A program made the position numbers and the translations under genes. Below are positions 340-61,270 of a stretch of DNA of 64,000 bases, in pieces. Origin of the DNA: an uncultured Patescibacteria group bacterium. GTDB taxonomy: Bacteria; Patescibacteriota; Microgenomatia; UBA10105; UBA927. Below the pieces are notes generated by a model. The model was not told the DNA's origin, made no database searches, and saw nothing but the letters and a program-made list of their open reading frames with translations. Each line of letters starts with the position of its first letter. The stretch's first letter is position 1. The stretch covers positions 1,089-65,088 of the forward strand of contig CAKZSU010000006.1 of NCBI GenBank assembly GCA_937921305.1, in the 5' to 3' direction.

Positions 340-349
340 TTAATATCAT

Positions 350-1453: not shown

Positions 1454-1553
1454 AACATAGAAAAAATGATTTTTAAATTTATATTGTTATTCTTAACAAA
1501 TCTTAAAAATCATAAAAGATAAATAAAAATAATAACGTCTTTCCATAATTTAT

Positions 1554-2342: not shown

Positions 2343-2383
2343 GAAAAATTATCCTGTTTCTATAAAATTAATGAAACAAAGAA

Positions 2384-8771: not shown

Positions 8772-9450
8772 TAAATCGATATTTTATTAATGTCCATACG
8801 GCGCTAACCCCATCCCTCCATGTTAACTTTTTTCCTTCTTCAAATTTTCTTCCCAAATATGAAATAGGAACTTCATAAATTTGATATCCTCTTTTCAAGA
8901 GCTTTGCCGTAACTTCTGGCTCAAAATCAAATCGTCTCGCTCGAAGACGAAGATCTTTGATGACTTCTCTTCTAAATAACTTGTATCCTGTTTCCATATC
9001 GGTGATATTCGAGTTGTATATAACATTTGTGAGAAATGTGACAAATTTATTCCCTATCGTGTAAAGAAACATCGTTGAAAGATGAGATCCTAAAAATCTA
9101 GATCCATAAACAACATGAACGCGGGGATTATTGAATGGTTTCAACAATTGTTCATAGTCATCCGGCGTATATTCAAAGTCAGCGTCTTGAATCAACAAAA
9201 TATCTCCTGTCGCTTTTTTAAATCCTCTACAGACAGCGTATCCTTTTCCGTAATTTCTATCCAAAAAAATAATCCTGTGCTTTTTTACATATTTTTGCAA
9301 TACATCTCTCGTGCCATCGGTCGAACCATCATCGATGATGATAAGTTCTTTTCTCCAACCCGGAATATGTTTTTTTGAAACAACCTCGAGCACGAGATCA
9401 ATCATCGATCGTTCGTTATATACCGGAATAATAATCGAAACCTTTTTCAT
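8764..9450 (-). CDS. GT2 polyprenyl-phosphate sugar synthase (dolichyl-phosphate mannosyltransferase-like)
   Basis: 228 aa. VSIIIPVYNERSMI...LIIIDDGSTDGTRDVL...GKGYAVCRGF...LIQDADFEYTPDDY. This is the classic DPM1/GtrB-like architecture. Confidence 0.75.
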   Translation of the reverse strand: MKKVSIIIPVYNERSMIDLVLEVVSKKHIPGWRKELIIIDDGSTDGTRDVLQKYVKKHRIIFLDRNYGKGYAVCRGFKKATGDILLIQDADFEYTPDDYEQLLKPFNNPRVHVVYGSRFLGSHLSTMFLYTIGNKFVTFLTNVIYNSNITDMETGYKLFRREVIKDLRLRARRFDFEPEVTAKLLKRGYQIYEVPISYLGRKFEEGKKLTWRDGVSAVWTLIKYRFID

Positions 9451-10454
9451 ATAACGCTGTTATACACTGTTGTTGTTTCATCGACAACACGTCTCCATGT
9501 AAACTGTTTTACCCATGATAACGCCTTCTTTCCTTCTTTTTCTTTATCTTTTTGAAGAGCGATTCTAATCCCGCGAACGACATCTTCAATACTCCACGGA
9601 TTCACAAGAACTGATGGTCCGGCAATCTCCACAGGACTTGAAACATTTGACACAACACATGGTGTTCCACACGCCATAGATTCAACAATTGGAAATCCAA
9701 ATCCCTCGGCGTAAGAAAGACACAATGTTAGTCTTGCGAAAGAGTATATACTCTTCAATTCATCCGTTTCAACAAAACCCAATGTTATAATTTTTTTCTT
9801 CAACCCTTCTTTGTCGATAATTCTTTCTATTTCTTGTACTTCTTGTATCGATACATTTAAAAATGCTTTGCCAACAAGCACAAGCGGGATATCAATGTTT
9901 CTCATTGCGCGAAGCATGGTGGGAATATTTTTATTCCAATTGACATCACCAACATATAACAAATATTCATCAGGGAGACGATATTTTTTCTTAACCGATC
10001 GATCGTATGTCGGAGTAAATGAAGGATCCGGCGCGATAGGTACAACATGAACATTCGCATCAGGAACATGGACGATCCGAACGATATCGTTCTTTGACGC
10101 AAATGAATCAGTAATAATGGCTGAAACGCGTTGAAGTTTCCATTTTTGTATTCGCCATGCAATCGATCCTCGGATACCCGCAGGAAAGTGTTTTGGGTAT
10201 ACCAATGGAATAAGATCGTGAACCGTAACCACAACTGGTTTGTTTTTTATAAACGGCATCGTGAAAAAAAACGGATCGAAAAACGGATAGTGAATACAAT
10301 CAATATCTGGAAGATCGCGGAATGAAAGAAATTGATAATAGATATTGTTTTTATCAAACAAAGAAAACGCTTGAAGAAGAAGACGAAGATATGTCCCAGA
10401 TCCTCTCGCGGCATGAGCGTTACGAAGCGGCAAGATATTTATTCCGACGCGCAT
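9447..10454 (-). CDS. Glycosyltransferase family 4
   Basis: ...YAEGFGFPIVESMACGTPCVVS... E-x7-E motif. The likely start is MRVGINILPL, a typical GT4 start. Confidence 0.75.
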   Translation of the reverse strand: MRVGINILPLRNAHAARGSGTYLRLLLQAFSLFDKNNIYYQFLSFRDLPDIDCIHYPFFDPFFFTMPFIKNKPVVVTVHDLIPLVYPKHFPAGIRGSIAWRIQKWKLQRVSAIITDSFASKNDIVRIVHVPDANVHVVPIAPDPSFTPTYDRSVKKKYRLPDEYLLYVGDVNWNKNIPTMLRAMRNIDIPLVLVGKAFLNVSIQEVQEIERIIDKEGLKKKIITLGFVETDELKSIYSFARLTLCLSYAEGFGFPIVESMACGTPCVVSNVSSPVEIAGPSVLVNPWSIEDVVRGIRIALQKDKEKEGKKALSWVKQFTWRRVVDETTTVYNSVI

Positions 10455-12045
10455 AGAAATAACGAAAAACGACAAAATTAATCATCAACGACAATGTAAT
10501 CAGAGACAGCGCATTTGCGCTCCTTCTTGTTTGCGTTTCTTCAAATATAGCTTCTACATTATACACGCCCCGTTCTGGAAGATTAATATCAATGACTCCG
10601 CGAGAATAATCGACAGGAATTTCCCGACCATTTGCTATTATTCGCCATCCCGGATAGTATGTTCTATGAATACGAAGGGATGTTTCTTGATTTGTTTCAA
10701 CAGAAAAAGACACAGATATGGATGTTTCTTGAACATTACGTATCTTCCCTCCTCCGCTGACAACGCTTGTATATCGCTCGCGAATCCACGGCGTCCAAAT
10801 AGTTGAAAAACTATTTCCAAGAGACGATGTTCCATCGGTGAATGAAGGATTATTCAGATAATACGAATCTTCTCTTGGTTCATAGGCAACAGGTCTCATA
10901 TAAGAAAAAGAAAGGACTATTGCTATTCCTCCAAAGAGGATAAGAGAGGTAATCCGACGAACAAAAAACGCGCCAAGAAATGGAATCGTTATCAGCAAAA
11001 TTGACAACAAACGCCATGGATATTGAATAAATTGAAGAAAGGAGATAATTCTCCAAATAAAATCTGACATTGGCAAAAGAAAGAATATTCCAATAAAGGA
11101 AAAAACAAAAAAAACTAGTCGAATCGGTGAATGTTGTTTCCATAAAAAAATAAAAGAAACTAGCAAAATAACCAATGGAACAATACCAATCTGCTGAGAA
11201 ATTTCTCCAGCAATAATACCTGGTTGAGAAAAATTTGTTCCCCATGATGGAAAGAGCAATTGCGTAATATGAGGAAAGTGATCGCTATAGGTGACGGTAT
11301 TCAACCCAATCACATACTGTCTTTCAAACAAAGCGGGAATCCAAAAATATGCACTTAGACCTATTCCTCCAATCAAAGAAATGAACGCATTTCGATAAAA
11401 CAACTCCGTAAATATAGTCAAAAATGGAATCATAATCATCGCCATGATATTGTGACTTACAATAATCAAAGCGATGCATAAAGAAAAAAGAATTACCCTT
11501 CTCCATACGATACTGGCTAATGCGCACCATGTCCACGCAATCGCCCACAACTCGCCAATAGATCCTCGAACATACACATCAACATAGAGATATGGAACAG
11601 AAAAAAACAACACAACCCCAAAGACTGATGAAATAACAGAATAATATCTTCTTAAGAAGATATAACAACCAATCATCGCAACAAAAAGACTCATGCCGAG
11701 ACTATACTGAAATGATTGAACAAGAGGAAATCCTAGCAGAAAAAATAATGAACCGACATAATTAGGAAATGGATAATGAAAAATAAATAAAGGAAATCCA
11801 TAACCGCTGTTTAATCCCGGAGCCCATCGAGGAAATATATGTCCCTCTCTCAACATTTTGGAAAATTCATAGATTCGAATTAAATGATATTCACCGTCAT
11901 GCGTTGGAATAAAACGATTCCCAAATAACGGAAATGCGGCGAACAACCAAAGAAAAAGGAGTATGCCAATCCCTACCGCTTCTTTTTTGTAACGATGTAT
12001 CGTCTCCATAATATTAAAGACATAAGCATTACAAGAGGAAGCCAC
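10420..12045 (-). CDS. Family-B GT-C-like membrane protein (uncharacterised HDG/PRW/GYG family with a YfhO-like C-terminal domain)
   Basis: THDGEYHLIRIYEFSKMLREGHIFPRWAPGLNSGYGFPLFIFHYPFPNY straight after TM1, followed by about 11 TM helices. The C-terminus has ...YYPGWRIIANGREIPVDYSRGVIDINLPERGVYNVEAIFEET. Confidence 0.55.
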   Translation of the reverse strand: MASSCNAYVFNIMETIHRYKKEAVGIGILLFLWLFAAFPLFGNRFIPTHDGEYHLIRIYEFSKMLREGHIFPRWAPGLNSGYGFPLFIFHYPFPNYVGSLFFLLGFPLVQSFQYSLGMSLFVAMIGCYIFLRRYYSVISSVFGVVLFFSVPYLYVDVYVRGSIGELWAIAWTWCALASIVWRRVILFSLCIALIIVSHNIMAMIMIPFLTIFTELFYRNAFISLIGGIGLSAYFWIPALFERQYVIGLNTVTYSDHFPHITQLLFPSWGTNFSQPGIIAGEISQQIGIVPLVILLVSFIFLWKQHSPIRLVFFVFSFIGIFFLLPMSDFIWRIISFLQFIQYPWRLLSILLITIPFLGAFFVRRITSLILFGGIAIVLSFSYMRPVAYEPREDSYYLNNPSFTDGTSSLGNSFSTIWTPWIRERYTSVVSGGGKIRNVQETSISVSFSVETNQETSLRIHRTYYPGWRIIANGREIPVDYSRGVIDINLPERGVYNVEAIFEETQTRRSANALSLITLSLMINFVVFRYFYARRNKYLAAS

Positions 12046-13067
12046 GTCACGGCTGTCCGAATGATCTGATTATATCCTTCATATTGTCTCGTCACGATAT
12101 AAGGAAGATTTCTTAATAGCAATCCAAAGCACAACGAAAAAGAAAACATATACAACAGACGATGAGATGTATATGGCAATAACACTAAGAATGACAAACA
12201 CCAAACAAAATACCACGGATACATTTCCTCTCGAAATGGAGAAATCATAAATATCACAAACATGAACCAATACGCCTGCGCAAACGATCTTGAAAATACA
12301 AGAAGTATCGTCGCCCCCTTTACGAGAACAGATAAACACCACAAAGCAAACTTAAAACGAGGTATCAGCAACGCCAATACAGCAAACGTCATCATCACCA
12401 TATCGTTGTGCCCTTCGTTTAATACAGTAATCAACACTAATGGATTCAAAGCAAACGCGGTGACATTCCATACGCTTTTTGTTACTCGCCACACAATATA
12501 CAAAAAGAAGAAGAAAAATGCAGCGACAAACCCTTTGAACGCGATAATTGCCACCCACACATGATTCATGCTCACAAGATGAGGAATAACCGTCAACGCA
12601 ATCCATGTCGGACCATAAAGCGCTGTTTTATTTGCGGCTCGAGTAAATGCAAGATTCGGTTCGTTTGGAATCTCAATCGGTCGAACTAACCACGGATTTT
12701 CCGTGTAAGTATAGACAACTTTCGATGTCAATATGTAATTGAATATGTCATACGAAAACGCCGGAAAAGAAAATAAAAATATCGCGCTAACAATCACGAT
12801 TATTTTTTTTATTTCAAAAAAAGTTAACCGTTGATGATGAACTAAATGAAGTGTCACCCCGTAAAACCCCCACAAGGAAAGCAAAAATACCACATACATC
12901 ATTCCCGCCCATCCTCGCTTCTCAAACACAAAATATTGCAATGGAGCATGTATTGTTTGATAGATTGGATGAGTCGAAAGGACAAGATTTTTGTCAACAA
13001 ACCCATATGAATATATGAGAAACAATAAAGCGATAAAAATATATCCCAGGATGACGAATTGTTTCAT
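11973..13067 (-). CDS. Polytopic membrane protein ('GHND' family, paralog of 48738-49907), possibly a GT-C-like mannosyltransferase
   Basis: 364 aa with about 9 TM helices. It shares the motif ...LNEGHNDMVMMTFAVLALLI... with 48738-49907 (VSGHNDIVMMMFALLSYFL). I cannot confidently assign a family. Confidence 0.4.
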   Translation of the reverse strand: MKQFVILGYIFIALLFLIYSYGFVDKNLVLSTHPIYQTIHAPLQYFVFEKRGWAGMMYVVFLLSLWGFYGVTLHLVHHQRLTFFEIKKIIVIVSAIFLFSFPAFSYDIFNYILTSKVVYTYTENPWLVRPIEIPNEPNLAFTRAANKTALYGPTWIALTVIPHLVSMNHVWVAIIAFKGFVAAFFFFFLYIVWRVTKSVWNVTAFALNPLVLITVLNEGHNDMVMMTFAVLALLIPRFKFALWCLSVLVKGATILLVFSRSFAQAYWFMFVIFMISPFREEMYPWYFVWCLSFLVLLPYTSHRLLYMFSFSLCFGLLLRNLPYIVTRQYEGYNQIIRTAVTWLPLVMLMSLILWRRYIVTKKKR

Positions 13068-13576
13068 TGTCGAATGTGTTTTGCTTCTTCAAGAATAGAT
13101 CGCAAAGATAATAAAATCGGATCCTTTTTTTCATCCTGCCAAACAAATGATTTGGGAAGATAGTCTATCAATTGCTCAATAACTGTTGCATGCGTTACGG
13201 CTTGTTCGCGATGGCGTTTATACAATTCCGTTACATCTTTTCCTTCGCTCTTCGCCGCGTCTATATATCGCTGAATTTCTACCCAATATTGATTGGAACG
13301 CTTAAGAGCGTTTACGGCAAGAATATATTGTTTATATTCAAAAAGCGTTTTTGCTTCAACAAGATACTTATCAGACAATTCAGTGTAGTAATGAACTTTC
13401 GCGATATTTCCCCAATGCCAATAATATTGAAAGGCGTCTAAAATTTTCATGAGTATTCGCAGTTTGTTTCCTGGCATCGGACCTGGATATGGGAGAATAT
13501 ACTCAGCTCTAACAGTAAAACTAACAATGTGCAACATGAAAAGCATCATAACAATGCTTTTTATCACTTTCATCAT
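13064..13576 (-). CDS. Small secreted/exported hypothetical protein
   Basis: 170 aa. The N-terminal hydrophobic segment MMKVIKSIVMMLFMLHIVSFTVRAEY looks like a signal peptide. The rest is predicted helical and charged. It is embedded between a membrane protein and a GT2 gene. Confidence 0.4.
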   Translation of the reverse strand: MMKVIKSIVMMLFMLHIVSFTVRAEYILPYPGPMPGNKLRILMKILDAFQYYWHWGNIAKVHYYTELSDKYLVEAKTLFEYKQYILAVNALKRSNQYWVEIQRYIDAAKSEGKDVTELYKRHREQAVTHATVIEQLIDYLPKSFVWQDEKKDPILLSLRSILEEAKHIRQ

Positions 13577-14325
13577 GGTTCACCTTTCAAATATTTCCAA
13601 TAGGCAATTGGAACATGCAATGCAGAAAACAGTGAAAATAAAAATCCATATATTCCATCAATAAATCCTTTCTTTTGAATAAAAAATACAACGAATATTT
13701 TTATGGGCTGAAGAAAAAAATATGAAAAAAATGCTCTTTTTGAAATCTTTTTTCTTCTCAATTCATCAGCAGTCAACGATGTGTATGTATCAGCTTTTCT
13801 CCAATAATCCGCTATGGTTTCATAAGAATAGTGATAAAGATGATGAGTGAGATATCCAACAGAACCATCAACATCTATCTGCTCGTGAACACTTTTGCAT
13901 GGAAATCTTGCTTTTCCTCTTTTCACAAGTCGAATCACATAATCAGGATACACTCCTGTTTTTCTCATCCAATGTCCCCAAAAGTTATTTTTTCTTGGAA
14001 TAAAAAAACCACAATTCGTTGTTGTGTTGATTACTTCTTGAATTTCATTTTTTAATTCTGGAGAAACAACTTCGTCAGCGTCTAATTGCAAAATCCAATC
14101 AGATCGACAAGAGTCTAACGCTTTTTGCTTATTGATATGAAAAATTGGCGGATTGTCCGCATAAATAATTCTTGCGTTAAATCGTTTTGCTATATCCAAT
14201 GTGCCATCGGTGGATCCTCCATCGACAATCACGATTTCATCTGCAATATCAACAATAGAAGATAAGCATCGCTCTAGATATTTTTCTTCATTATACACAG
14301 CTAACGCGATAGAAAGTTTTTTCAT
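13573..14325 (-). CDS. Glycosyltransferase family 2
   Basis: LSIALAVYNEEKYLERCLSSIVDIADEIVIVDGGSTDGTLDIAKRF...LQLDADEVV. It is a paralog of 40808-41719, with the same C-terminal HEH.VVDG block. Confidence 0.75.
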   Translation of the reverse strand: MKKLSIALAVYNEEKYLERCLSSIVDIADEIVIVDGGSTDGTLDIAKRFNARIIYADNPPIFHINKQKALDSCRSDWILQLDADEVVSPELKNEIQEVINTTTNCGFFIPRKNNFWGHWMRKTGVYPDYVIRLVKRGKARFPCKSVHEQIDVDGSVGYLTHHLYHYSYETIADYWRKADTYTSLTADELRRKKISKRAFFSYFFLQPIKIFVVFFIQKKGFIDGIYGFLFSLFSALHVPIAYWKYLKGEP

Positions 14326-15950
14326 TGTCTCGCTAAAATAAGTAAGGGAAACAATAATATAACGCTTGCCATAGAAACAATCGTTGATATCATCCGAAAC
14401 TTTGTGTCTTGAAAGACAATGCGAATTGCATGCTCACCTTGATCAACCCAAAATGTTATTCTCCCTCTCCATCGAGGATCTTGAAATTCTATATCAGCTC
14501 GTTGATTATTCACAAAGACATTCCATCCCGGAAAATACAGCGTGTTCTCAACCAATCGCGTTCGTTCTTTTGCGATAACATGATACTCTCTCATCGTCGT
14601 TATTCTTCGTTGTTCCTTAATGATCGCGTTTCCTTCAGCGATTTCCATATGAGAAGACGGCTCGAATTCCATAAACCGAACAGACCAAATGGGACTACTT
14701 TCTCCTGTATCTGTTGTGCTTTTGTACACTCCAGTAAAAAATGATTCATCGTATGTTTTATACGCTTTCGGTTTCCACATGTGAGCAGTGGACACAACGG
14801 CAATCACGCACAACAACAATCCAAGTATCGATTGATATCGTTTTCGGACTTGAACAATGACTGAAGCTCCAATAAGACTTCCAATAAATGTCGTCATGAC
14901 AAGTAATCGCCAAGGAAACTGAAATTTTTGCAAAAGAGAAATTTTCTCCCAAATAGGCAACGATGGAGATGTCATGAGGACAAGATATCCACAAAACATC
15001 GCCCATAACCCAAAAATCAATCCTTTCTTTTTTATAAAAATGGTTAAAAAGAAAAGAATAATCATCGGCATGCCAATTTCTTTTGTAAATTCATTCCCGC
15101 CACCATAGTTCCATGGAGAACGGAGAAATGATGCAAATGGAACCATTCGTTGTCCAATTTCTCCTTTTGTCACAATATCTCGCAATGTGTACTTTCCCTC
15201 AAAAAACGCTGGAAATAGAAAAAATGCCGATAGCAAAACACTATACATGCCAAAAAGAAAAACAAAAACCAAAAATCGTTTTTTTTGTTTAGTATGAATC
15301 ATCATGTATAGAACAAAGAACACTATACATGGAATCATCATGATGCTTACAGCATTATGCGACAACAACAATCCAGCGAGAGATAGAGAGAAAAACAATC
15401 CCCACAGAATTTTTCTTTTTTTTCTCGCCAAATCAGCAATTCCCCAAAGAATAAGCGGTAAAAAGATAAACGACACATGCTCTCCTATCGCGCCGCGAAC
15501 ATAAAGGTTTACAAATCTATACGGAGCGAATCCGTACAATATCGCGGCAACAATACCGGGAATAGTTCCCCAGAAATCTTTAACAAACCAATACATCGCA
15601 AGAATGCTTGCAGCATATCCAAAAGCAAACACTAACTTTACGCTATCAACGAGTGAAAATCCTATCGCATGAAAAAAAGAAGCGATGTAAGAAGGCAATG
15701 GATACAGAAACATAAGTACAGGATGACCAAAACCCCAATTCAAGTTATTTCCCCACCGTGGGATGATATTTCCTTCGGATAAAGATTGATAAAAATTCGC
15801 TATTCTTGCGACATGGTCTTGCCCATCATGCGTCACAGGCAATCCCGGAGACAGCAAAGAACGAAGAGGAAACAATGAAAGTATCATCAAAAACAAGGGA
15901 AAGAGCAATCGTTTATTCATAGACATAAAGAATAACCCCCGGCGTTTCAT
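14322..15950 (-). CDS. Family-B GT-C-like membrane protein
   Basis: THDGQDHVARIANFYQSLSEGNIIPRWGNNLNWGFGHPVLMFLYPLPSY. The C-terminus has YFPGWNVFVNNQRADIEFQDPRWRGRITFWVDQGEHAIRIVF. The start is uncertain: the track ORF runs to 15998, and internal Met codons lie at about 15950 and about 15920. Confidence 0.55.
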   Translation of the reverse strand: MKRRGLFFMSMNKRLLFPLFLMILSLFPLRSLLSPGLPVTHDGQDHVARIANFYQSLSEGNIIPRWGNNLNWGFGHPVLMFLYPLPSYIASFFHAIGFSLVDSVKLVFAFGYAASILAMYWFVKDFWGTIPGIVAAILYGFAPYRFVNLYVRGAIGEHVSFIFLPLILWGIADLARKKRKILWGLFFSLSLAGLLLSHNAVSIMMIPCIVFFVLYMMIHTKQKKRFLVFVFLFGMYSVLLSAFFLFPAFFEGKYTLRDIVTKGEIGQRMVPFASFLRSPWNYGGGNEFTKEIGMPMIILFFLTIFIKKKGLIFGLWAMFCGYLVLMTSPSLPIWEKISLLQKFQFPWRLLVMTTFIGSLIGASVIVQVRKRYQSILGLLLCVIAVVSTAHMWKPKAYKTYDESFFTGVYKSTTDTGESSPIWSVRFMEFEPSSHMEIAEGNAIIKEQRRITTMREYHVIAKERTRLVENTLYFPGWNVFVNNQRADIEFQDPRWRGRITFWVDQGEHAIRIVFQDTKFRMISTIVSMASVILLFPLLILARQ

Positions 15951-17559
15951 TGAGATATCTTGCAATATATTGCACTCGTATTCCTTGATGATCTTCAAAG
16001 TAATTAGTTACATACAATGTTTTTTCGTTGCGTTCATTTTTTTTAATTGATCGAAACTCATAGACATCAAACGCGTGATGCGCGTCAAAACTTCCAGACT
16101 GTGTTCCTCCGTAATGATGGTACATCTTTGGATGATATCGAGAAAAAAATAAAAAAAACATATATGACGGGTAAGAGTATCGTTGACCCAATCGATTCGA
16201 GATAACAATCGAATCAAAAGCATCACGATAGTTTAGAAGATACTTCATTGCATCTGCGGCAGCGTATGAAAACGCTTCTGATTGGTCCCGAGGAAAAACA
16301 AAAAAATAATTTCTATAAAAATGATACAAACTTACACTAATAACAAAAAGAAATATAGCAACGGTTATTACGCTCTTTTTTAGAAGAGCATAACGAGAAA
16401 ACACGTGCCATAAACCAATCGCGCCAAATACTTGCCATGTTGGAAGAAATGTGTATGATCGCATCGCGTGCGGAGCTTGCGTTGTTATTGCTGCAGGGAT
16501 TGGAGAGGATAAAAACCATATCATCATAAAGAAAAAAACTTTTTTAGAAAACAGTTTATACGCTAAAACAAAGCCAATCAGAATAAATGGAAGCTCCCAT
16601 GGATACAATAATCCCATGTATGGAACTTTATGTGCTTCATACGCTTTTCCTTGAAATAGCCAAGAAAAGGAAAAATGCGACATATATTGCTGAAGAAAAA
16701 TTTTCAATGACGTTAATCGAGGATGATGCCATAACTGCACAAAGATATTCTTTTCTTCTCTTGCTTGAACAAACGCCAGCCGATCTCGTTCGTAAAACGG
16801 ATGACTTCCATTAAAGACCGTCGTTCCTTGAAACCGAATTAATCCCTTATCTGAAAATGTGACAAGAATCAGGGGAAAAAGAAGAATGAAGCAAAAAAAG
16901 AGAAGCACGATTATTTTTTTAAACTGTTTGAGAAGAACGCGAAAAAAAAGACCAAACAGTGAACAAACAATAATCGGAATAATAATTTTTTGACTTTGAT
17001 AACTATATAACGCCAAAACAAACGAAAAAAGTGAAAATGCAATAATGCTCGTCTTATTGCATTCATAAATATAGTAAAAAAACAATGCAATCCCTATCAC
17101 ACCGAACGCGAGACCAGCGTTTACTTCGTGTCCTAATCGAGATATATAGATATGCCATGGAGATATCGCCAATAAAACCATAGCGATCAATCCGATCCAC
17201 ATGTTCTTTGTTAAAATTTTCGCAAGAAAAAATGTTGCGACAACAGTAAGCAAAGAAAGAACGACCGAAGGCGCGCGAACCGCCTCGACAGTTAATCCAA
17301 ATATAAAAAGAAATGGAAGAATTAAATATACATACAACGCCGGTCTGTAATCATCGTATGCTCGAAGGAGAATAGGAAAAAATGTTCCATATTCATCTCT
17401 CCCCGTATGAAATATCGAGTAAGCGTTCCACCCCAAGGAAACTTCATCAAGAGACGGAGATGGAGGAACAGAGGAAAGATGATAGAAACGAAGGATAAAA
17501 GCGAATATAATTATGGCGATAAATATTATTGTTTTATGCATACCGAAATAATTTTGCAT
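15913..17559 (-). CDS. Family-A GT-C glycosyltransferase (PMT/ArnT-like, GT39/GT83-like)
   Basis: SLDEVSLGWNAYSIFHTGRDEYGTFFPILLRAYDDY in the first extracytoplasmic loop (DE motif). 548 aa with about 11 TM helices and a C-terminal soluble domain. Confidence 0.6.
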   Translation of the reverse strand: MQNYFGMHKTIIFIAIIIFAFILRFYHLSSVPPSPSLDEVSLGWNAYSIFHTGRDEYGTFFPILLRAYDDYRPALYVYLILPFLFIFGLTVEAVRAPSVVLSLLTVVATFFLAKILTKNMWIGLIAMVLLAISPWHIYISRLGHEVNAGLAFGVIGIALFFYYIYECNKTSIIAFSLFSFVLALYSYQSQKIIIPIIVCSLFGLFFRVLLKQFKKIIVLLFFCFILLFPLILVTFSDKGLIRFQGTTVFNGSHPFYERDRLAFVQAREEKNIFVQLWHHPRLTSLKIFLQQYMSHFSFSWLFQGKAYEAHKVPYMGLLYPWELPFILIGFVLAYKLFSKKVFFFMMIWFLSSPIPAAITTQAPHAMRSYTFLPTWQVFGAIGLWHVFSRYALLKKSVITVAIFLFVISVSLYHFYRNYFFVFPRDQSEAFSYAAADAMKYLLNYRDAFDSIVISNRLGQRYSYPSYMFFLFFSRYHPKMYHHYGGTQSGSFDAHHAFDVYEFRSIKKNERNEKTLYVTNYFEDHQGIRVQYIARYLNETPGVILYVYE

Positions 17560-17564
17560 TCAAT

Positions 17565-19193
17565 CTACGATGAAATTCGTATCGCTTCTATTCCATTTAA
17601 ATAATAAATTGTGTGTATGCTATGAGGAATTTCACTTGGCGTCCCAATGTAAAGAATCGTTCCATCGCGTTTTTCATTCTCCCATTGAATAGGACGAAAT
17701 CGAAACTTATCAAACGCATTTTGTGTTTCTTTAAATCCTCCAGATTTTGTACCTCCTTGTGAAAGATATAATGAAGGATCGTATCGCAAATGGAACAAAA
17801 AAAACATATGAGGCTGTTCCAATTTTGTTGAAACGACAATCGTTTCATATTTATCATAATGTTGAACCGCGTATTCAACCGCCTGCTTGTATCCATACTG
17901 CCAATACTCAGAATATTCATAATTTTGTTGAATAAAGTATGAAGAGAGATAATATGTAACATTCCATAACCCAACGATACACACAATAATAAAAACGCCA
18001 TAACGAATCCGATAGATTGATTTGAAAAGAAAAAATGTATATATCGTTCCAATAGCAATGACTATTTGAAATGTCGGAAGGAACACAAGCGTTCGTATAG
18101 CATGAGGCAATTCTGTTGTCGGGGACGCGGGAATAGGAGCAATCAACATCCATCCAAGAATAAAAAAGGCAACTTTTTTTCCATGCTGTATTAACCACAA
18201 TAAACCAACAAATAATAGCGGCAACTCGATATGATAAAGCAACCCCATTCTAGGGGCATGATGCCGAGCGTTATCACCCTCTAAAAACAACCACTTCAAC
18301 GAAAAATGAGAAAGATACCCATTGAGGATCGTTTTCGCATAAACAAATCGACGATTATCCAACAATAAACCAATCTGGCTATTCATCTCCCTGTCTCGCT
18401 CCAATTTTCTTACGGTATCTCTTAATAAACCAGTTGTATCCGCAAGCGTGCTTGTCCCCCTGAGTCTCATAAGCGTTGTTGGATTGGTAAATACTGGAAT
18501 TAATGGAAGGATGGTCAAAAATAATGAAAGAAAAAATAGACCAATATATCGTTTCCGTTCCCATATCTCTTTTCTAAAGGCAACAAAAAAAAGAAGAATC
18601 AACAAAGGTATGAAAACTCGTTGACTATGATACGCGTATAAACTCGCTCCCATAAGACATCCTGATACAACAAAAAAGAAAGGATTTCTTAACCCTCGAA
18701 GCAGGGCATAGATACCCCAAATGTTCAATGTCACTCCTATATTTGCTTCAAAGGCGATCCGAGAAAAATGAACATGCCACGGAGAAATCGCGAGAAGAAA
18801 CGCGCCAAGATATGGTAAATATTTCCATTTTTGCAGTAATGAAGCATGCCGAGAAAATTCTCTTACAAGAAAGAAAACGCCAATAACAGCGATTACACCA
18901 TTTATTGCAGCAGGCAAACGCGTAGACCATAGATCAAGGCCAAAGATTGCGACACTTGGAATCGCAAGATACATGTAAAGAGGCGGTTTGTAATCATCGT
19001 AAGATCGCAGAGACAATGGGAAGCGTTCTCCATACTCATCTCTTCCAGTCTTCAATATGGAATACGCATTCCATCCAAGTGCCGCTTCATCCCAATTTGG
19101 CCCAACCGGAACCTCGCCTAATTTACAAAAGCGAATCGCTATCGCAACAACAACAATACAAACTAATAAAAGATAATCTTTGAAACGATTCAT
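17565..19193 (-). CDS. Family-A GT-C glycosyltransferase (PMT/ArnT-like)
   Basis: NWDEAALGWNAYSILKTGRDEYGERFPLSLRSYDDYKPPLYMY. It is a paralog of the neighbouring genes. Confidence 0.6.
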   Translation of the reverse strand: MNRFKDYLLLVCIVVVAIAIRFCKLGEVPVGPNWDEAALGWNAYSILKTGRDEYGERFPLSLRSYDDYKPPLYMYLAIPSVAIFGLDLWSTRLPAAINGVIAVIGVFFLVREFSRHASLLQKWKYLPYLGAFLLAISPWHVHFSRIAFEANIGVTLNIWGIYALLRGLRNPFFFVVSGCLMGASLYAYHSQRVFIPLLILLFFVAFRKEIWERKRYIGLFFLSLFLTILPLIPVFTNPTTLMRLRGTSTLADTTGLLRDTVRKLERDREMNSQIGLLLDNRRFVYAKTILNGYLSHFSLKWLFLEGDNARHHAPRMGLLYHIELPLLFVGLLWLIQHGKKVAFFILGWMLIAPIPASPTTELPHAIRTLVFLPTFQIVIAIGTIYTFFLFKSIYRIRYGVFIIVCIVGLWNVTYYLSSYFIQQNYEYSEYWQYGYKQAVEYAVQHYDKYETIVVSTKLEQPHMFFLFHLRYDPSLYLSQGGTKSGGFKETQNAFDKFRFRPIQWENEKRDGTILYIGTPSEIPHSIHTIYYLNGIEAIRISS

Positions 19194-20809
19194 AAATGAA
19201 ATCCAACCAAACGAGATTCTCCATTCAACAAACGAACGCGAAACACTTCTTTAGATCCCTGAGGAACTTCAATTAAAGGAAGTATATACAATGTATTTTG
19301 TTCATACGATTCTGGATTGTGTCGGACAAATTCATATGATCCAAACCCTTTGACAGTATAAAATCCAACCGCGTCAAAATATGCATGTTTCGTTCTCCAA
19401 AACTCTCTCGGATCGTATGCTCCATAAAACAACGCATAGGCGTATGGTCTGCCTATTACATCCGACACCACAATTTTTTGATATTTATCTTTTACAGATT
19501 CTGAAAAACGAAACGCTTCTCTGTACCCATACTGCCATTCTCCTGAGTACTCTATTGGATAATGTGCATAGTAGTTGTGAAGATAATACATGATAAAAAA
19601 TCCATATCCAAAAATGACGAATATCCTGGAAGAGAAAGAAACCAATACGTGCTTTTGTTCAAACAGCACATAAACAATTCCATACGCAATCCATATATGC
19701 CATGTCGGAAGCGTATTTAAAATACGTAACGCGTGAGGAGTCTCTCGAGCAACACCGGCAGGAATGACTGCAAGCAACAACCAAAGCAACAATAATATAC
19801 CCACCTTTTTATACCTAAGAAGTACCCCAAAAAATCCAACGACAAGAAACGGAATTTCAACAATATATAACTGTCCCACATCTTGAATGGAGAACTTTGG
19901 ATTGCCGTCTCCTTTAATAAATAAAAATCTCGGCTCGAAATGATCAAGATAGTGCTTGGCGAATTCCATCGCATAATATATACGTCGATTATGAATAATT
20001 CTTGCCCACATTGTGTTTCCAGCTTGCTCAATTCGTTGATTTGCCGTTCGAACAATATCAACATTGCTAAAGATATTCACTTCTTTATATCGAAGGCGAG
20101 CTTCAGGAGAAAGTAAGTGTGGAAGAATTGGCAACAGCGCAAACACTCCTATCATCCATCCAATCGCAACCTTTTTCCTTTCCTTCCATGCATATTCTTT
20201 TGTATACCACAATAAGAAAAGAAGAAACATTGGCGAAAAATATCGAGCGCTATTAAACGTATATACCGCGGCAACAAAAGGCAAAAACACTCCGTACCAT
20301 ATGGTTGATCGAGATCGAGCAAGAAGAAACAACACAGTCGCAAGAACGATAAAAAACAACGCGATAACCGCTTCAAATCCGACTCGCGAAAGATTTACAT
20401 GCCAAGGTGATATTCCTAGGACAAAAGATGAAAGAAGCGCAAGAGTATACTTCTTTTTGTGAGATGAAAATAATTCAAGAACAAGCACGTACGTTAACGC
20501 AACTGTAGCAGTTCCAAACAATACAGAAGGAATGCGAACAGAAAATTCATTCAAGCCAAAAAACGCGATAAATGGAACAGTGATGTAAATGGGAATGGGC
20601 GGTTTATAATCTCCATATGCAATAAATGTATCCAATGGTAACAATCTTCCGTGTTCATCTTTTCCTGTTTTTAAAATTGAGTATCCATTATATCCAATTG
20701 ATACTTCATCCCATGATAATGAGGGGGGAATTTGATCAACTTTATATACTCGAAAACAAAAAGAGATACAAATAATAATGAACAAAAAAAATCTATAATA
20801 GGTCGTCAT
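19190..20809 (-). CDS. Family-A GT-C glycosyltransferase (PMT/ArnT-like)
   Basis: SWDEVSIGYNGYSILKTGKDEHGRLLPLDTFIAYGDYKPP. The likely start is M13 (MTTYYRFFLF) at about 20809. Confidence 0.6.
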   Translation of the reverse strand: MTTYYRFFLFIIICISFCFRVYKVDQIPPSLSWDEVSIGYNGYSILKTGKDEHGRLLPLDTFIAYGDYKPPIPIYITVPFIAFFGLNEFSVRIPSVLFGTATVALTYVLVLELFSSHKKKYTLALLSSFVLGISPWHVNLSRVGFEAVIALFFIVLATVLFLLARSRSTIWYGVFLPFVAAVYTFNSARYFSPMFLLFLLWYTKEYAWKERKKVAIGWMIGVFALLPILPHLLSPEARLRYKEVNIFSNVDIVRTANQRIEQAGNTMWARIIHNRRIYYAMEFAKHYLDHFEPRFLFIKGDGNPKFSIQDVGQLYIVEIPFLVVGFFGVLLRYKKVGILLLLWLLLAVIPAGVARETPHALRILNTLPTWHIWIAYGIVYVLFEQKHVLVSFSSRIFVIFGYGFFIMYYLHNYYAHYPIEYSGEWQYGYREAFRFSESVKDKYQKIVVSDVIGRPYAYALFYGAYDPREFWRTKHAYFDAVGFYTVKGFGSYEFVRHNPESYEQNTLYILPLIEVPQGSKEVFRVRLLNGESRLVGFHL

Positions 20810-22031
20810 ACTGCTTGAATATACCCAATGCGATGAGATCCGCAATTACAGCGACATGACTATCATTAAAATATCTACTTGTGTACCAGAATGAAAACAA
20901 AATTATTGCAAATCCAAGAAAAAATTTTGCAATGGAAGGATTTTTACTGAAAAACCGCAAAACAACCATTGTGGTCACGCCTCCCACGAGAATCTGCCAT
21001 ACGATAAAAGGATAATATTCATGAATATCATTAATCAATCTAAATTGATACAGCATCATCGATAATCCATACCCGCTTATAGGATACCCTCGTTCTCCGC
21101 CAGAGCTTAAATACCGAATCGTACTATCAATGAACGCGTTTGCATCCCACACAAGAAAAGGACCAACAAACAATCCAATGGTAATGAGAAACACAATACC
21201 TGATCGAACAATCGTCTTCCGTTGTGGAGTCGTATAAAACATATATAGGAGAAACAGTGGAGCGGCAAACCACATTGTTTGTTTGCTTAAGAACGCAAAC
21301 GCAAACGATATAGACGCAAGATATGGTCGTTTCTGATTTAGGAACAATAAACTTGCGACAAGAAAAAATAATGCAAAACTGTCGCTTCTACCTTCAATGA
21401 AAAAGTGAACAGACGCTGGAGAAAGCGATGCAAATACGATGGCAAGTTCCGCAAGGTCAAATTTCTTAAATAACCGCAAAAACATCCACCATATGCCAAC
21501 CATAAATACAACAAGAACCATTCTTCCATCGAAATAACCAAATATCCTATTTGCTAGCCAATAAAACGGAAATGGAACAAGTAAATACGCCGGTGGCATA
21601 ACAAAGTGATAGAGAGCAGGATTCACCGCGTCTTGATTTCCCGGCTCATCGTAATTAAACAATTCCACAGGAGTGCCAAAATATGTTTCTTTATATGGAT
21701 TCTTTCCTTGAAGGAGATATCGCATCGCCGCCTCTTGTTGCAGCACGATATCATGAACTTTCCACGAAGGCGCTACCACGTGCCGTTCATAAATAGCTCC
21801 AGTCGTCGCTCCCAAAAAAACAATCCCGAGAGATACCCAAAAAGAAACCAATCGAGCCTTTTGAAAACGGTCGGTGTAAAAAAGGGATGTCAACGCAAGA
21901 GTCATGAACGAAACAAGAAGAATACCATACAACCAATATTGATTTCCTTCCGTTGGAAACAACTTGTATCGCGTTATGACAGGAATGCTAAAAGAAAAGA
22001 GCAATACAGCCGTCAATGTCCTAAAATTCAT
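20793..22031 (-). CDS. Polytopic membrane protein, orphan (GT-C-like?). First gene of the minus-strand block.
   Basis: 412 aa with about 10 TM helices and no DE or HDG motif. It begins MNFRTLTAVLLFSFSIPVITRYKLFPTEGNQYWLYG. Confidence 0.35.
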   Translation of the reverse strand: MNFRTLTAVLLFSFSIPVITRYKLFPTEGNQYWLYGILLVSFMTLALTSLFYTDRFQKARLVSFWVSLGIVFLGATTGAIYERHVVAPSWKVHDIVLQQEAAMRYLLQGKNPYKETYFGTPVELFNYDEPGNQDAVNPALYHFVMPPAYLLVPFPFYWLANRIFGYFDGRMVLVVFMVGIWWMFLRLFKKFDLAELAIVFASLSPASVHFFIEGRSDSFALFFLVASLLFLNQKRPYLASISFAFAFLSKQTMWFAAPLFLLYMFYTTPQRKTIVRSGIVFLITIGLFVGPFLVWDANAFIDSTIRYLSSGGERGYPISGYGLSMMLYQFRLINDIHEYYPFIVWQILVGGVTTMVVLRFFSKNPSIAKFFLGFAIILFSFWYTSRYFNDSHVAVIADLIALGIFKQYDDLL

Positions 22032-22064: not shown

Positions 22065-23666
22065 ATGAAAAAAAGCCTTAATATTCTGATTATTCTTATT
22101 GTTCTTTCTTCGCTTCCGTTTATTCACATGTTTGTATCGCCTGACTTACCACACACAAGCGACGGAGAAGTGCAAATCCCTCGAATGGCTGCGTTTTATA
22201 AAGCGATTCGAGACGGACACATTCCTGTTCGATGGGCTGGAGATTTAAATTATGGCTATGGCATGCCGTTGTTTACTTTCATCTATCATACGCCGTTTTA
22301 TGTTTCTTCTTTTCTAATCGCTCTTGGCATCCCTCTTGTTTCTGTGTTTAAACTCACTCTTTATTTCAGTTTTCTATTATCTTGCATATTCATGTTTTTA
22401 TTCGCAAAGACATTTTTTAAGAGAGAGAAGATAGCATTCCTTGTCACGCTTCTATATCAATTCGCTCCGTATCATCTCGTTGATGTGCTAATCCGCGGAG
22501 CTATTGGAACAATCTATGTGTATGCTTTTTTCCCTCTTGTCCTCTGGGGATGTTTACGAGCGAACATTCCAATTGTCACAATTTCCCTCTCTCTTATGAT
22601 TCTTTCTCATAATTCTATGGCGCTTGTTTTCTTCTTTATTACTATTGGATTTCTCTTATTATTTGCTGAAAACAAACGAAAGGCGATTCTTGGCATATCT
22701 CTTGGGCTTGGTCTCGCTTCTTTTTATTGGATTCCAGCGCTTATTGAACATAAATATACCTATGGAGATCTCTTTATGAAGGATCTTTTTCGGGTGAACT
22801 TTCCTCAGTTTCATCACTTTTTCATTCCGAACCTATTTAACGATCCGCACCTTCGCGTTTCTGAGATTGTTGTTCACTGGGGAATAGCACACACACTTCT
22901 AACAGTTCTTGCTATCATCTTTTGGAGGTCATTGCCATCAACAATGAAAATTATGTCGATATTTTGTTATGCAATCATCATTATTTCAATTTTCTTCATG
23001 CATCCTCTATCAACGCCACTATGGGAACGCGTATCGTATCTTCGACAATTTCAATTTCCGTGGAGATTCTTGTCGGTCATCGTATTCGCCACAGCAATGC
23101 TCGGAGGAATAGTCATCCATCGATATTTACCAAGAAAACCATATCTTTTTATTATTCTCGCACTTATGATCGTGTTGCCGACAATGCACTATTGGAAACC
23201 AACACAAGGATATGATCAAATTCAAGATGAACAAGTATTTTGGAATTATCCATTGAATACCACATACTTTGGCGAAACAGATGTGATATGGTCAGCCGGA
23301 CCAGCAACTGCGTATCCTAAGTCCCGAGTACAAATCATAGAAGGAGAAGGAAGAATTCATAATTTCAGAAAAATAAATCACAAACAAACATTTTCTGTTA
23401 AATCGACAACAAGCGCTCGCATAGTCAGCCACACGCAGTACTTTCCCGGATGGAGAGTTTACATAAACGGTGAAAAAACCTCCATTCAATTTCAAGATCC
23501 GAATTGGCGAGGACTAATAACATTTTTTGTTCCTGAAGGAACACATGCTGTTCGCATACAATTTGAAGAAACTCCGATACGATTACTAGCAAATCTTATA
23601 TCTGTGGGATCCATAATTATATTGATAAGTTTTCTCATTAGAAAACATTTATGCAAACGCGCATAA
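22065..23666 (+). CDS. Family-B GT-C-like membrane protein
   Basis: TSDGEVQIPRMAAFYKAIRDGHIPVRWAGDLNYGYGMPLFTFIYHTPFY. The C-terminus has YFPGWRVYINGEKTSIQFQDPNWRGLITFFVPEGTHAVRIQFEET. Confidence 0.55.
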   Translation: MKKSLNILIILIVLSSLPFIHMFVSPDLPHTSDGEVQIPRMAAFYKAIRDGHIPVRWAGDLNYGYGMPLFTFIYHTPFYVSSFLIALGIPLVSVFKLTLYFSFLLSCIFMFLFAKTFFKREKIAFLVTLLYQFAPYHLVDVLIRGAIGTIYVYAFFPLVLWGCLRANIPIVTISLSLMILSHNSMALVFFFITIGFLLLFAENKRKAILGISLGLGLASFYWIPALIEHKYTYGDLFMKDLFRVNFPQFHHFFIPNLFNDPHLRVSEIVVHWGIAHTLLTVLAIIFWRSLPSTMKIMSIFCYAIIIISIFFMHPLSTPLWERVSYLRQFQFPWRFLSVIVFATAMLGGIVIHRYLPRKPYLFIILALMIVLPTMHYWKPTQGYDQIQDEQVFWNYPLNTTYFGETDVIWSAGPATAYPKSRVQIIEGEGRIHNFRKINHKQTFSVKSTTSARIVSHTQYFPGWRVYINGEKTSIQFQDPNWRGLITFFVPEGTHAVRIQFEETPIRLLANLISVGSIIILISFLIRKHLCKRA

Positions 23667-25870: not shown

Positions 25871-27550
25871 ATGAAATATAAATATAATATTATTCTCTTC
25901 CTGATTATCCTTTTTGGTTCATTTATACGATTGTATCGAATTGATAGCATTCCTAATGGTCTTCAACAAGACGAGCTTTCTATTGGTTATAACGCATACT
26001 CTATTCTCAAAACTGGGAAAGACGAACATGGAAAAATCATGCCACTCCAATTCATTGCGTTCGGCGAATATAAACTGCCAGTATCCATCTACGCAACTGT
26101 ACCATTTATTTATATATTTGGTTTAAACGAAATAGCAGTTCGTCTTCCATTTGGGATATTCGGCATCGCCACTATCATTGTTTTTACTCTAATCATTAGA
26201 GATGTATTTTTAGAGAATCACAATAGAAATATAGCAATGATCATCGGCGCGTTTCTTCTTGCAACAAATCCATGGCATATATTCTTCTCTCGAGCCGCTT
26301 TTGAAGTAACTATCGCGCTGTTTTTTCTTTCTCTTTGTCTTTTATTATTGTTTTTCTATCTTCGAAAAAAACAGAATATTATTCTTTACGCTTCAATCGT
26401 CTCAGGAATGTTTGCTTTTTATACCTATAACACCATGCGATTAATCATTCCGCTGTTATTGATCTCATTGCTTTACACCATAAGAAACAATAAAAAACAC
26501 GTGTGGATGTCAATAATTATCATTTTCCTTTTTGCTATCCCATTTTTAGTGACAATATCAGATTCAACATCCGCAGTTTCCGGAACGCTTATTCACTCAA
26601 GCGCGAGAATTCAAGCTGAATTAATTGAGACGCGAAGTTATATGGTAAACATTCATCCATTCATTCAAAAAATATTTTTTTCTATACCACTGCAAACTGT
26701 CGTTGTTTTTATAAAAAACATCCTAAACAATATAAACGCTTCGTTTTATCTCCTCCATGGTCCTTTTCATGGAAATCATGGCATAGGGACGCACGGATTA
26801 TTTTTCATCTATCAATTACCACTATTTCTCATAGGTATCGTTTTTTACTTAAAGAATAAAACCATACAAACAACTCTTTTGCTTCTTGTCATGTTTTTCA
26901 CAATTATTGCAACCGCCATAACAAGAGAAAGTCCGTACGGCACAAGAAGTTTTTTCATGGTGCCAGCAATTCTTGTTATAACAACCATAGGGGTCTTACA
27001 TGTTTGGAGATGGATGGTAAAAAGAAACGTTACTATGAAATGCTTCATAATCGGAACAGTTTCTTTCTCAATCCTATATGAAGGAACTACCTATGCACTA
27101 AGCTATGCACAACGATTCCCGCAAGCATATGCAAAAGAATGGAGGTCTGCAGATAAAGCATTAATTGCGTACCTTCAAGAAAAAAACGATGAATACGATC
27201 GAATTGTCATCGACCCAGAAGCAAATCTTCTTTATATTTCATACTTATTCTATTCAAAAATAGATCCGAATGAATTCATTAATTCTGTCGAAAAAGAGAA
27301 ACCAGACAATGAGGGATTCATAAATGTAAAAAAATTTATCAATGTGGAATATCGATCGATTCATTGGGAGGAAGATCTAAAGAAGAAACGCACAATTTTT
27401 ATAACTCGACCAGAAAAAAAACCAGAGACAGCGCAAAAATTTAAAACTTTTTATTATCCAAAAAGACCTGTTGCCATAGCAAAAAAACAAGAAATTATTC
27501 AATATCCTTTTCAGGATATCGCGTATGTTGTCATATCATCGCTTGAATAA
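25871..27550 (+). CDS. Family-A GT-C glycosyltransferase (PMT/ArnT-like)
   Basis: QQDELSIGYNAYSILKTGKDEHGKIMPLQFIAFGEYKLP. Confidence 0.6.
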   Translation: MKYKYNIILFLIILFGSFIRLYRIDSIPNGLQQDELSIGYNAYSILKTGKDEHGKIMPLQFIAFGEYKLPVSIYATVPFIYIFGLNEIAVRLPFGIFGIATIIVFTLIIRDVFLENHNRNIAMIIGAFLLATNPWHIFFSRAAFEVTIALFFLSLCLLLLFFYLRKKQNIILYASIVSGMFAFYTYNTMRLIIPLLLISLLYTIRNNKKHVWMSIIIIFLFAIPFLVTISDSTSAVSGTLIHSSARIQAELIETRSYMVNIHPFIQKIFFSIPLQTVVVFIKNILNNINASFYLLHGPFHGNHGIGTHGLFFIYQLPLFLIGIVFYLKNKTIQTTLLLLVMFFTIIATAITRESPYGTRSFFMVPAILVITTIGVLHVWRWMVKRNVTMKCFIIGTVSFSILYEGTTYALSYAQRFPQAYAKEWRSADKALIAYLQEKNDEYDRIVIDPEANLLYISYLFYSKIDPNEFINSVEKEKPDNEGFINVKKFINVEYRSIHWEEDLKKKRTIFITRPEKKPETAQKFKTFYYPKRPVAIAKKQEIIQYPFQDIAYVVISSLE

Positions 27551-53357: not shown

Positions 53358-53390
53358 ACGAAGAGCGGGTAAACCGCATAAATCATTCTG

Positions 53391-54350: not shown

Positions 54351-54390
54351 AGTCCTCCTTCTTATAAATCATTATAAACGATATTGTATA

Positions 54391-61219: not shown

Positions 61220-61270
61220 CCTATATTTTTTTAATAGGGGTATTATATAGAGAAGAATTATTTTTGTCAA

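Follow-up and report, generated by a model that had tools for sequence, protein, structure and literature searches.

Why does an uncultured Patescibacteria group bacterium hold five related genes for membrane glycosyltransferases within one locus, and what might their products build? The question arises from a 64,000-nucleotide stretch of contig CAKZSU010000006.1 (assembly GCA_937921305.1), called the window in the following. A preliminary description of this stretch had pointed out three consecutive genes and two further copies that resemble protein O-mannosyltransferases (PMT) and the aminoarabinose transferase ArnT. All five genes, here named A1 to A5 and together family A, are indeed present; however, they form only a small part of a glycan-synthesis island that spans about 350 to 58,300 of the window and holds about 21 GT-C-like glycosyltransferase genes within 64 kb, A1-A5 included. 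By modelled fold and motif, family A consists of GT-C_A enzymes, and we favour, with moderate confidence, the view that these paralogues work in an extracytoplasmic glycan assembly line that builds or decorates a surface glycopolymer or lipoglycan.

Five genes of one predicted GT-C_A family

A1 (15913-17559, 548 residues), A2 (17565-19193, 542 residues) and A3 (19190-20809, probably 539 residues) follow one another on the minus strand, and A4 (25871-27550, 559 residues) and A5 (29129-30838, 569 residues) lie on the plus strand. All-vs-all blastp of 51 open reading frames (ORFs) of the window linked the five proteins with E-values of 1e-39 to 1e-100 at 24.8-36.3% amino acid identity, so that the 35-45% previously estimated by eye was too high. 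A4 is the most divergent copy and matches A1-A3 and A5 with E-values of 1e-39 to 1e-60. The third gene had been drawn to the TTG at 20845, which gives the longest ORF (551 residues), but its start is most likely the ATG at 20809 (MTTYY…, 539 residues), as in the gene call on a public contig. The gene upstream of A3, a GT87/PMT_2-like GT-C gene (20793-22031, minus strand), overlaps the A3 start, the stop of A3 and the start of A2 share 4 nt (ATGA), A2 and A1 are separated by a 5-nt spacer, and the A1 stop overlaps the ATG at 15920 of the following gene, B2. With stops and starts overlapping or nearly abutting, GT87-A3-A2-A1-B2 are packed as an operon.

The regular expression DE..[LIVM]G[WYF]N[AG]YS has exactly 5 matches in the six-frame translation of the window, one per gene, and the D-E codons lie at 17448-17443 in A1, 19091-19086 in A2 (D35-E36), 20710-20705 in A3, 25970-25975 in A4 and 29228-29233 in A5. 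In a MAFFT alignment, the loop motif reads SLDEVSLGWNAYSIFHTGRDEYG…YDDYRPA in A1, NWDEAALGWNAYSILKTGRDEYG…YDDYKPP in A2, SWDEVSIGYNGYSILKTGKDEHG…YGDYKPP in A3, QQDELSIGYNAYSILKTGKDEHG…FGEYKLP in A4 and HRDEAFLGYNAYSLLKTGKDMSG…, without KPP, in A5. The core of the motif that had been proposed for all copies is thus found in each of them, but its tail, YDDYKPP, is exact in A2 only and deviates to RPA in A1, to GDY in A3 and to GEYKLP in A4, and is absent from A5. Invariant positions include D-E, G, N, Y-S, T-G, D, G and P, followed downstream by P-W-H…S-R…E. Across four orthogroups (about 205 sequences), D35, E36, R92, P138, R145, R243 and R367 (A2 numbering) reach a conservation of at least 90% within every group and, because of these seven residues, all paralogues look catalytically competent.

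Pfam returned PMT_2 and/or PMT matches for family A with E-values of 1e-5 to 1e-11, in agreement with the expected profile hits. A2, A3 (PMT 35.2 bits, PMT_2 33.3 bits) and A5 (PMT 44.2 bits, PMT_2 30.1 bits) pass the gathering score, whereas A1 (PMT_2 25.8 bits, PMT 21.7 bits) and A4 (PMT_2 24.7 bits) stay just under it; A2 and A4 match PMT_2 only, without a PMT match. PMT_4TMC and MIR domains were not detected in A1-A5 (Pfam, E ≤ 0.01), and NCBIfam gave only far-sub-threshold matches to Agl23 and WsfD and no match to an ArnT model. Profile searches against all PDB sequences found ArnT (5ezm) as the sole match, which is non-significant (E 0.014 with a 5-sequence profile, E 0.033 with a 53-sequence profile) and covers residues of about 60-230 only; in the profile alignment, the KPP of family A aligns with the KPP of ArnT. 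The loop had been read as a hallmark of GT39 (PMT) and GT83 (ArnT). This reading is supported in part: the Asp-Glu pair is invariant and predicted to lie outside the cell, but the ArnT match is non-significant and PMT_4TMC and MIR domains are lacking.

An AlphaFold2 model of A2 built from 53 sequences reached a pLDDT of 87.1 and a pTM of 0.89. Foldseek returned 23 matches to it at E ≤ 1e-3, all of them GT-C enzymes save the GT-C-like GPI-transamidase subunit PIG-U. Together with the Pfam and PDB profile results, this identifies them as GT-C_A enzymes, equally far from PMT, ArnT and the oligosaccharyltransferases, and nothing puts them in GT39 or GT83. The modelled polytopic membrane fold is common to STT3/PglB, ArnT, PMT and ALG enzymes, and the conserved acidic motif of GT-C_A enzymes (DxD, DE or ExD) lies, here as DE, in the predicted first extracytoplasmic loop, 12 residues after the first transmembrane helix (TM1).

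Kyte-Doolittle prediction was inconsistent (7-10 TM helices across the paralogues), and the helix boundaries of the model together with counts of lysine and arginine were used instead. They give 11 hydrophobic helices for A2. The N-terminal tail with R3 and K5 and the short loops 112-125, 166-171, 206-215, 337-340 and 391-397, which are rich in lysine and arginine, share one side, whereas the loops of the opposite side have no such residues or are net acidic. Predicted to lie outside the cell are the external loops EL1 (23-87, net acidic) and EL4 (237-322) and a C-terminal α/β domain (423-542). In the model, an amphipathic helix of EL1 begins with D35-E36, the loop between TM7 and TM8 comprises about 86 residues of helices, and the C-terminal outside domain of about 120 residues is unrelated to PMT_4TMC. 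The Asp-Glu pair, invariant in about 205 members, would hence sit after TM1 on the outside, where the preliminary description had placed it, and not in the cytoplasm, both by model topology and by the positive-inside rule. On this model, family A is a PMT_2-type subfamily that combines 11 TM helices with a distinct outside domain of about 120 residues at the C-terminus.

Orthogroups, gene order and age of the duplications

The exact A2 protein is present on a public 565-kb metagenomic contig (ENA ERZ6864144, c_000000188073). Several other proteins (e.g., A1, A4, B4, C1) are 99% identical between the two, and A1 is called there with 550 instead of 548 residues; since window and contig are not identical, the window must derive from another strain or assembly that is nearly the same. 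The names of the best A2 homologues point to Patescibacteria, Microgenomates, Gottesmanbacteria or Woesebacteria; automatic annotation calls several of them 'glycosyltransferase family 39 protein' or 'ArnT family glycosyltransferase'. A scan with one genome per species found a family-A relative in at least 558 species, and when 1.84 billion cluster representatives were searched with a profile, 5,970 of them (clusters at 50% identity) had E ≤ 1e-30 and 14,473 had E ≤ 1e-10. Many related loci come from metagenome-assembled genomes titled 'uncultured Gammaproteobacteria bacterium' (TPA_asm binchicken/SRP co-assemblies), 'Limnocylindrales' or 'Acidiferrales'. Yet the operon in these loci is that of Microgenomates, at 43-56% identity, and the titles look like placeholders or wrong taxonomy.

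Orthologue-like ORFs in 80 species loci are 42-62% (A2), 39-62% (A3) and 37-53% (A1) identical to the genes of the window. A neighbour-joining tree of 249 family-A sequences resolved orthogroups for A1 (33 sequences from 32 loci), A2 (80 sequences, 79 loci), A3 (77 sequences, 76 loci) and A5 (15 sequences, 14 loci), whereas the A4 orthogroup was poorly resolved. Across the 80 loci, which include Gottesman-, Woese- and Levybacteria, we found the recurrent order GT87-A3-A2-(A1)-B2-GT2(13573)-[small protein]-M1-B1-GT4-GT2(8764)-flippase, in which numbers in brackets are start positions in the window. The GT87-like gene is conserved upstream of A3 in many loci, and A3 stands directly upstream of A2 in 75 of 79. 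The A3 stop overlaps the A2 start by 4 nt (gap -4 nt) in 29 of 72 loci, and the gap is at most +6 nt in 68 of the 72. Loci of at least 20 kb hold a median of 9 GT-C-like genes (per 21.6 kb). The core operon is conserved across Microgenomates.

The tandem arrangement and the similar lengths of the genes could also reflect recent tandem amplification, gene conversion or an artefact of assembly or binning, with no distinct functions of the copies. This is extremely improbable. The paralogues share only 25-36% amino acid identity and are less alike than orthologues, and A1, A2, A3 and A5 each form an orthogroup of their own across dozens of species. Nucleotide alignment of the five genes, a check that the preliminary description had suggested, is limited to the motif region (69-76% identity), the longest exact shared strings are 11-18 nt, and blastn at word size 7 together with a longest-shared-substring test found no gene-conversion tracts among A1-A5. 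Moreover, the order is the same on the public 565-kb contig and in 80 independent genomes. We rejected amplification, conversion and artefact on the grounds of identity, nucleotide tests, synteny and orthogroups. Because orthologues are more alike than paralogues, orthogroups are clean and conversion tracts are lacking, the duplications are ancient and older than the split of Gottesman-, Woese- and Levybacteria, as had been suspected from the divergence of the copies.

A proposed assembly line and its possible acceptors

We favour a glycopolymer or lipoglycan as acceptor because GT4s and flippases stand in the operon beside MptA/B-like and GT87-like genes, a combination that is also the gene set of the mycobacterial lipomannan pathway. 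Polyprenyl-phosphate sugars would be made on the cytoplasmic face by GT2 enzymes of the island that resemble dolichyl-phosphate mannose synthase (DPMS) and ArnC, and would then be flipped. Each family-A enzyme would take a sugar from the flipped donor and transfer it on the outer face of the membrane, with Asp35 of the D35-E36 pair in the first external loop (A2 numbering) as catalytic base and with R92, R145, R243, R367 and K69 of DDYKPP holding the donor phosphate. The five ancient, non-redundant paralogues would presumably each serve a different linkage and, together with about 16 other GT-Cs (GT87-, MptA/B-, PTPS_related- and YfhO-like), would act as an extracytoplasmic assembly line for a surface glycopolymer or lipoglycan of the monoderm Microgenomates cell. 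We infer the polyprenyl-phosphate-sugar donor, Asp35 as base and transfer outside the cell from GT-C enzymology (ArnT, PMT, PglB, mycobacterial GT-Cs) and from three-component systems (PMC9574508). The many conserved and non-redundant GT-Cs suggest many different linkages in one product, and sub-functionalisation of the paralogues for different donors or acceptors, as initially proposed, would be plausible.

Many different GT-Cs that work one after another on a single glycoconjugate outside the membrane and use polyprenyl-phosphate-monosaccharide donors are familiar from the mycobacterial battery for lipomannan, lipoarabinomannan and arabinogalactan (PimE, MptA, MptB, MptC/GT87, EmbA-C, AftA-D, Ppm1). 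Similarly, the island holds MptA/B-like, GT87-like, GT4 (PimA/B-like) and DPMS-like genes, and both have paralogous GT-C genes side by side (EmbA-EmbB there, A3-A2 here). A pathway like that for phosphatidylinositol mannosides (PIM) has likewise been inferred for a Saccharibacterium (PMC6031116). The island also resembles Gram-positive three-component systems (CsdA/CflA/CsdB, GacI-L, CsbB/GtcA/YfhO, YkcC/YkcB), in which a GT2 makes a C55-P-sugar, a GtrA or Wzx flippase moves it and a GT-C places the sugar on a wall polymer outside the cell; for rhamnan, such decoration by three components that include a GT-C has been reviewed (PMC9574508). All three component types, i.e., polyprenyl-phosphate GT2, GtrA/Wzx flippase and GT-C, are co-located in the island together with dTDP-rhamnose genes. 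The proposed assembly line resembles the GT-C decoration of rhamnose-rich wall polysaccharides in Gram-positive bacteria. However, the known systems have one GT-C per module, whereas the island has about 21 GT-C genes for about 5 donor synthases. Unlike a variable serotype locus, the island keeps its order across class- to phylum-level lineages.

Several observations weigh against a glycopolymer or lipoglycan and fit a protein acceptor just as well. Family-A enzymes might be protein O-glycosyltransferases, like actinobacterial Pmt or Streptococcus mutans Pgf, that use polyprenyl-phosphate-sugar donors and modify Ser/Thr of secreted or wall-anchored proteins, or extend O-glycans on them, with S-layer proteins, pilins and sortase substrates as candidate targets; we consider this less likely than the favoured reading but a serious alternative. 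With Pfam PMT (PF02366, cut-off 22.7), A3 and A5 score above the cut-off and A1 is borderline at 21.7. The conserved GT2 next to B2 (13573-14325, minus strand, 250 residues), which is kept in nearly all related loci, has as its closest solved relatives the flagellin O-GlcNAc transferase GmaR (E 1.9e-17) and the peptide S-glycosyltransferase SunS, and its closest characterised relatives are not polyprenyl-phosphate sugar synthases. The C-termini of PgfM1/PgfM2 give weak matches to neighbours of the YfhO family. At the island edge, a sortase gene (59554-60123, minus strand) adjoins a gene for a surface protein with a fibronectin type III (fn3) domain (60095-61270, minus strand), whose Pro/Thr/Ser-rich linker (…GGPTPTITPTPLMSPSSLPTPMPTSQSQSSSGS…) and C-terminal LGATG, hydrophobic stretch and HKFSR tail make it a candidate sortase substrate and O-glycosylation acceptor. 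Two further points count against the favoured reading: no gene of the window could be recognised as one for an initiating phosphoglycosyltransferase, an LCP ligase or a Wzy-type polymerase, and A5, in which DM replaces the second DE, lacks the lysine of DDYKPP. On the other side, the likeness to GmaR and SunS has no bearing on the acceptor of the GT-Cs because both act in the cytoplasm. PMT_4TMC and MIR domains are missing, the C-terminal outside domain differs, and family A is only 13-15% identical to PMT (GT39: yeast Pmt1/2/4, actinobacterial Pmt). Bacteria with Pmt normally carry one copy, whereas here five to nine paralogues share an operon with genes typical of glycopolymer or lipoglycan assembly, namely GT4s, Wzx-like flippases and the MptA/B- and GT87-like genes.

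True ArnT (GT83) orthologues would modify lipid A or another membrane lipid with a cationic or neutral sugar and confer resistance to antimicrobial peptides. Relatives are publicly annotated as 'ArnT family' or '4-amino-4-deoxy-L-arabinose transferase-like', and the window holds a separate Arn-like module (50659-55689) with genes for Ugd, a short-chain dehydrogenase/reductase (SDR), GT2-GtrA and PMT_2. Nevertheless, such a function is very unlikely for A1-A5. ArnT has 13 TM helices and the A2 model has 11, identity to ArnT is 11%, the PDB match is non-significant and partial, and no arnA/B/D genes lie next to A1-A5 in the window annotation. Bacteria of the Candidate Phyla Radiation (CPR) are reported to have a Gram-positive-like envelope without outer membrane (PMC6744442). 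Lipid A is not expected in such a monoderm host, which makes an ArnT function implausible, and a single lipid modification does not explain five or more conserved paralogues. We rejected it on host envelope type and missing sequence support. Within the favoured assembly-line reading, A3 and A2, perhaps with A1, could also be obligate subunits of one hetero-oligomeric GT-C complex, which we regard as unlikely. The constant A3-A2 adjacency and the short or overlapping junctions described above would suit it, as would the retention of all catalytic-site invariants in both proteins and the established paralogous GT-C heterodimers Pmt1-Pmt2 and EmbA-EmbB (PDB 6p25, 7bvf), but tight coupling is common to any operon partners.

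The array, the family-A subfamily, the Microgenomates-wide operon and the density of GT-Cs were not found described in the searchable literature on CPR/Patescibacteria glycosyltransferases, which yielded general remarks only, on the PIM-like genes of the Saccharibacterium cited above and on Peribacteria with multiple copies of Dol-P-Man synthase. Both this class of enzymes and the principle of glycosylation outside the cytoplasm are already well known, and public pipelines label relatives GT39 or ArnT family; rather than a new mechanism, the locus thus offers pathway discovery in a lineage so far unexplored. Members of the CPR/Patescibacteria have ultra-small cells, are for the most part uncultured and depend on hosts. 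Within a large island rich in GT-Cs, itself part of a reduced genome, A1-A5 form the conserved core, and together with the many cluster representatives found, this points to a specific set of enzymes for a surface layer of glycan or glycoprotein, through which the cells probably make contact with hosts and phages. The significance of the island would rise if it builds a host-contact surface layer, or if A3-A2 is an obligate heteromeric enzyme. As a bolder and rather improbable extension, Microgenomates genomes of about 1 Mb would give 7-13% of the chromosome to an anciently conserved island of this kind, whose about 20 dedicated GT-Cs would build a major envelope glycoconjugate almost entirely outside the cell. 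This would be a lipoglycan or wall-glycan assembly line like that of mycobacteria but independently evolved in CPR, with the translationally coupled A3-A2(-A1) as a hetero-oligomeric, possibly processive core comparable to EmbA-EmbB or Pmt1-Pmt2 and a product possibly used for host attachment.

Other genes of the island

The count of about 21 GT-C-like genes follows from profile-profile comparison (hhalign), which links all families of the island. It gave probabilities of 99.1% between family A and three distant PMT_2 genes, 99.7% between families B and C, 96.3% between the distant PMT_2 genes and family B, 92.6% between the GT87-like and MptA/B-like genes and 91.6% between family A and the GT87-like gene. 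The latter heads the conserved minus-strand operon (Pfam GT87 31.0 bits, PMT_2 27.3 bits). Family B comprises GT-C-like membrane proteins related to PTPS_related, YfhO and STT3, i.e., B1 (10420-12045, minus strand), B2 (14322-15920 from its ATG, or 14322-15998 as ORF, minus strand), B3 (22065-23666, plus strand), B4 (27525-29153, plus strand), B5 (43883-45862, minus strand) and B6 (45549-47078, minus strand). They match each other in blastp with E-values of 1e-32 to 1e-86, and Pfam PTPS_related was found for B2, B4 and B5. B2, immediately downstream of A1, is kept in nearly all loci at 40-57% identity and scores 34.2 bits with PTPS_related, 30.6 with YfhO and 29.4 with STT3. The YfhO-family GT-Cs C1 (23651-25864, plus strand, 737 residues; Pfam YfhO 75.2 bits), C2 (31728-33989, minus strand; 35.5 bits) and C3 (36858-39161, minus strand; 68.2 bits) have about 750 residues each and are linked by blastp E-values of 1e-81 to 1e-92.

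M1 (11973-13067, minus strand) resembles membrane glycosyltransferases of the MptA/B family and carries a precomputed Pfam PF26314 match on the public contig; M2 (48738-49907) is its MptA/B-family-like paralogue by blastp. The distant PMT_2 genes P1 (4297-5691), P2 (47075-48580) and P3 (50659-52257, minus strand) also encode D-E after TM1. U568 (34142-35848, minus strand) is a polytopic, highly hydrophobic membrane protein of 568 residues with no Pfam or NCBIfam match; its hhalign probabilities of 86.7% with family A and 88.9% with the distant PMT_2 genes suggest that it is probably another, remote GT-C.

Five GT2 enzymes resemble polyprenyl-phosphate hexose synthases. They are encoded at 6722-7588, 8764-9450 (minus strand, 228 residues), 43162-43905, 49910-50662 and 52233-53357 (minus strand), the last being a GT2-GtrA fusion with a GtrA_DPMS_TM domain, and the resemblance makes the enzyme at 8764-9450 a likely donor-making one. 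Over the whole domain, these donor-type GT2s match Pyrococcus furiosus DPMS (PDB 5mlz, E 1.7e-18) and ArnC (E about 1e-16), and their NCBIfam matches (AglJ, ArnC, PgfS, PpgS, Dol-P-hexose transferase) are all under the equivalog cut-offs. Wzx-like flippases are encoded at 7509-8771 (Polysacc_synt, minus strand) and, as a second copy, at 41712-43169. The sugar-nucleotide genes of the island comprise rmlA/B/D and genes for UDP-glucose dehydrogenase, an SDR dehydratase-like protein and UDP-GlcNAc 2-epimerase, and several further GT2 and GT4 enzymes are present.

The Arn-like module is on the minus strand and consists of P3, the GT2-GtrA fusion, the SDR gene (53391-54350) and a UDP-glucose 6-dehydrogenase gene (54391-55689). 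The SDR gene is 4,6-dehydratase/decarboxylase- or UDP-xylose-synthase-like, and the module could make and transfer a polyprenyl-P-pentose or a uronic-acid-derived sugar. Between the GmaR/SunS-like GT2 and M1 lies a gene for a small protein of 170 residues (13064-13576, minus strand) with an N-terminal signal or TM segment, a helical body and no family match. Several related loci keep this gene in the same place at 36-42% identity, and its product could have an accessory role or set chain length.

The island runs past the window start, where the public contig carries more GT2s, an acetyltransferase and DegT aminotransferases, and it therefore exceeds 75 kb on that contig. The GC content is 0.28-0.33 in positions 1-4000 of the window and 0.34-0.42 elsewhere; this segment, with an epimerase, a 262-residue protein and GT2s, may be more variable or recently acquired. 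At the other end, the island is flanked by a gene for an apiosidase-like glycoside hydrolase (62768-63967, minus strand; PF13204, E 1.4e-54) and, within 61462-63967 (minus strand), by one for a secreted protein of 437 residues with a marginal, sub-threshold GH10 match (E 0.035, 13.8 vs 22.1 bits). Both flanking genes may serve glycan turnover or the degradation of host glycans.

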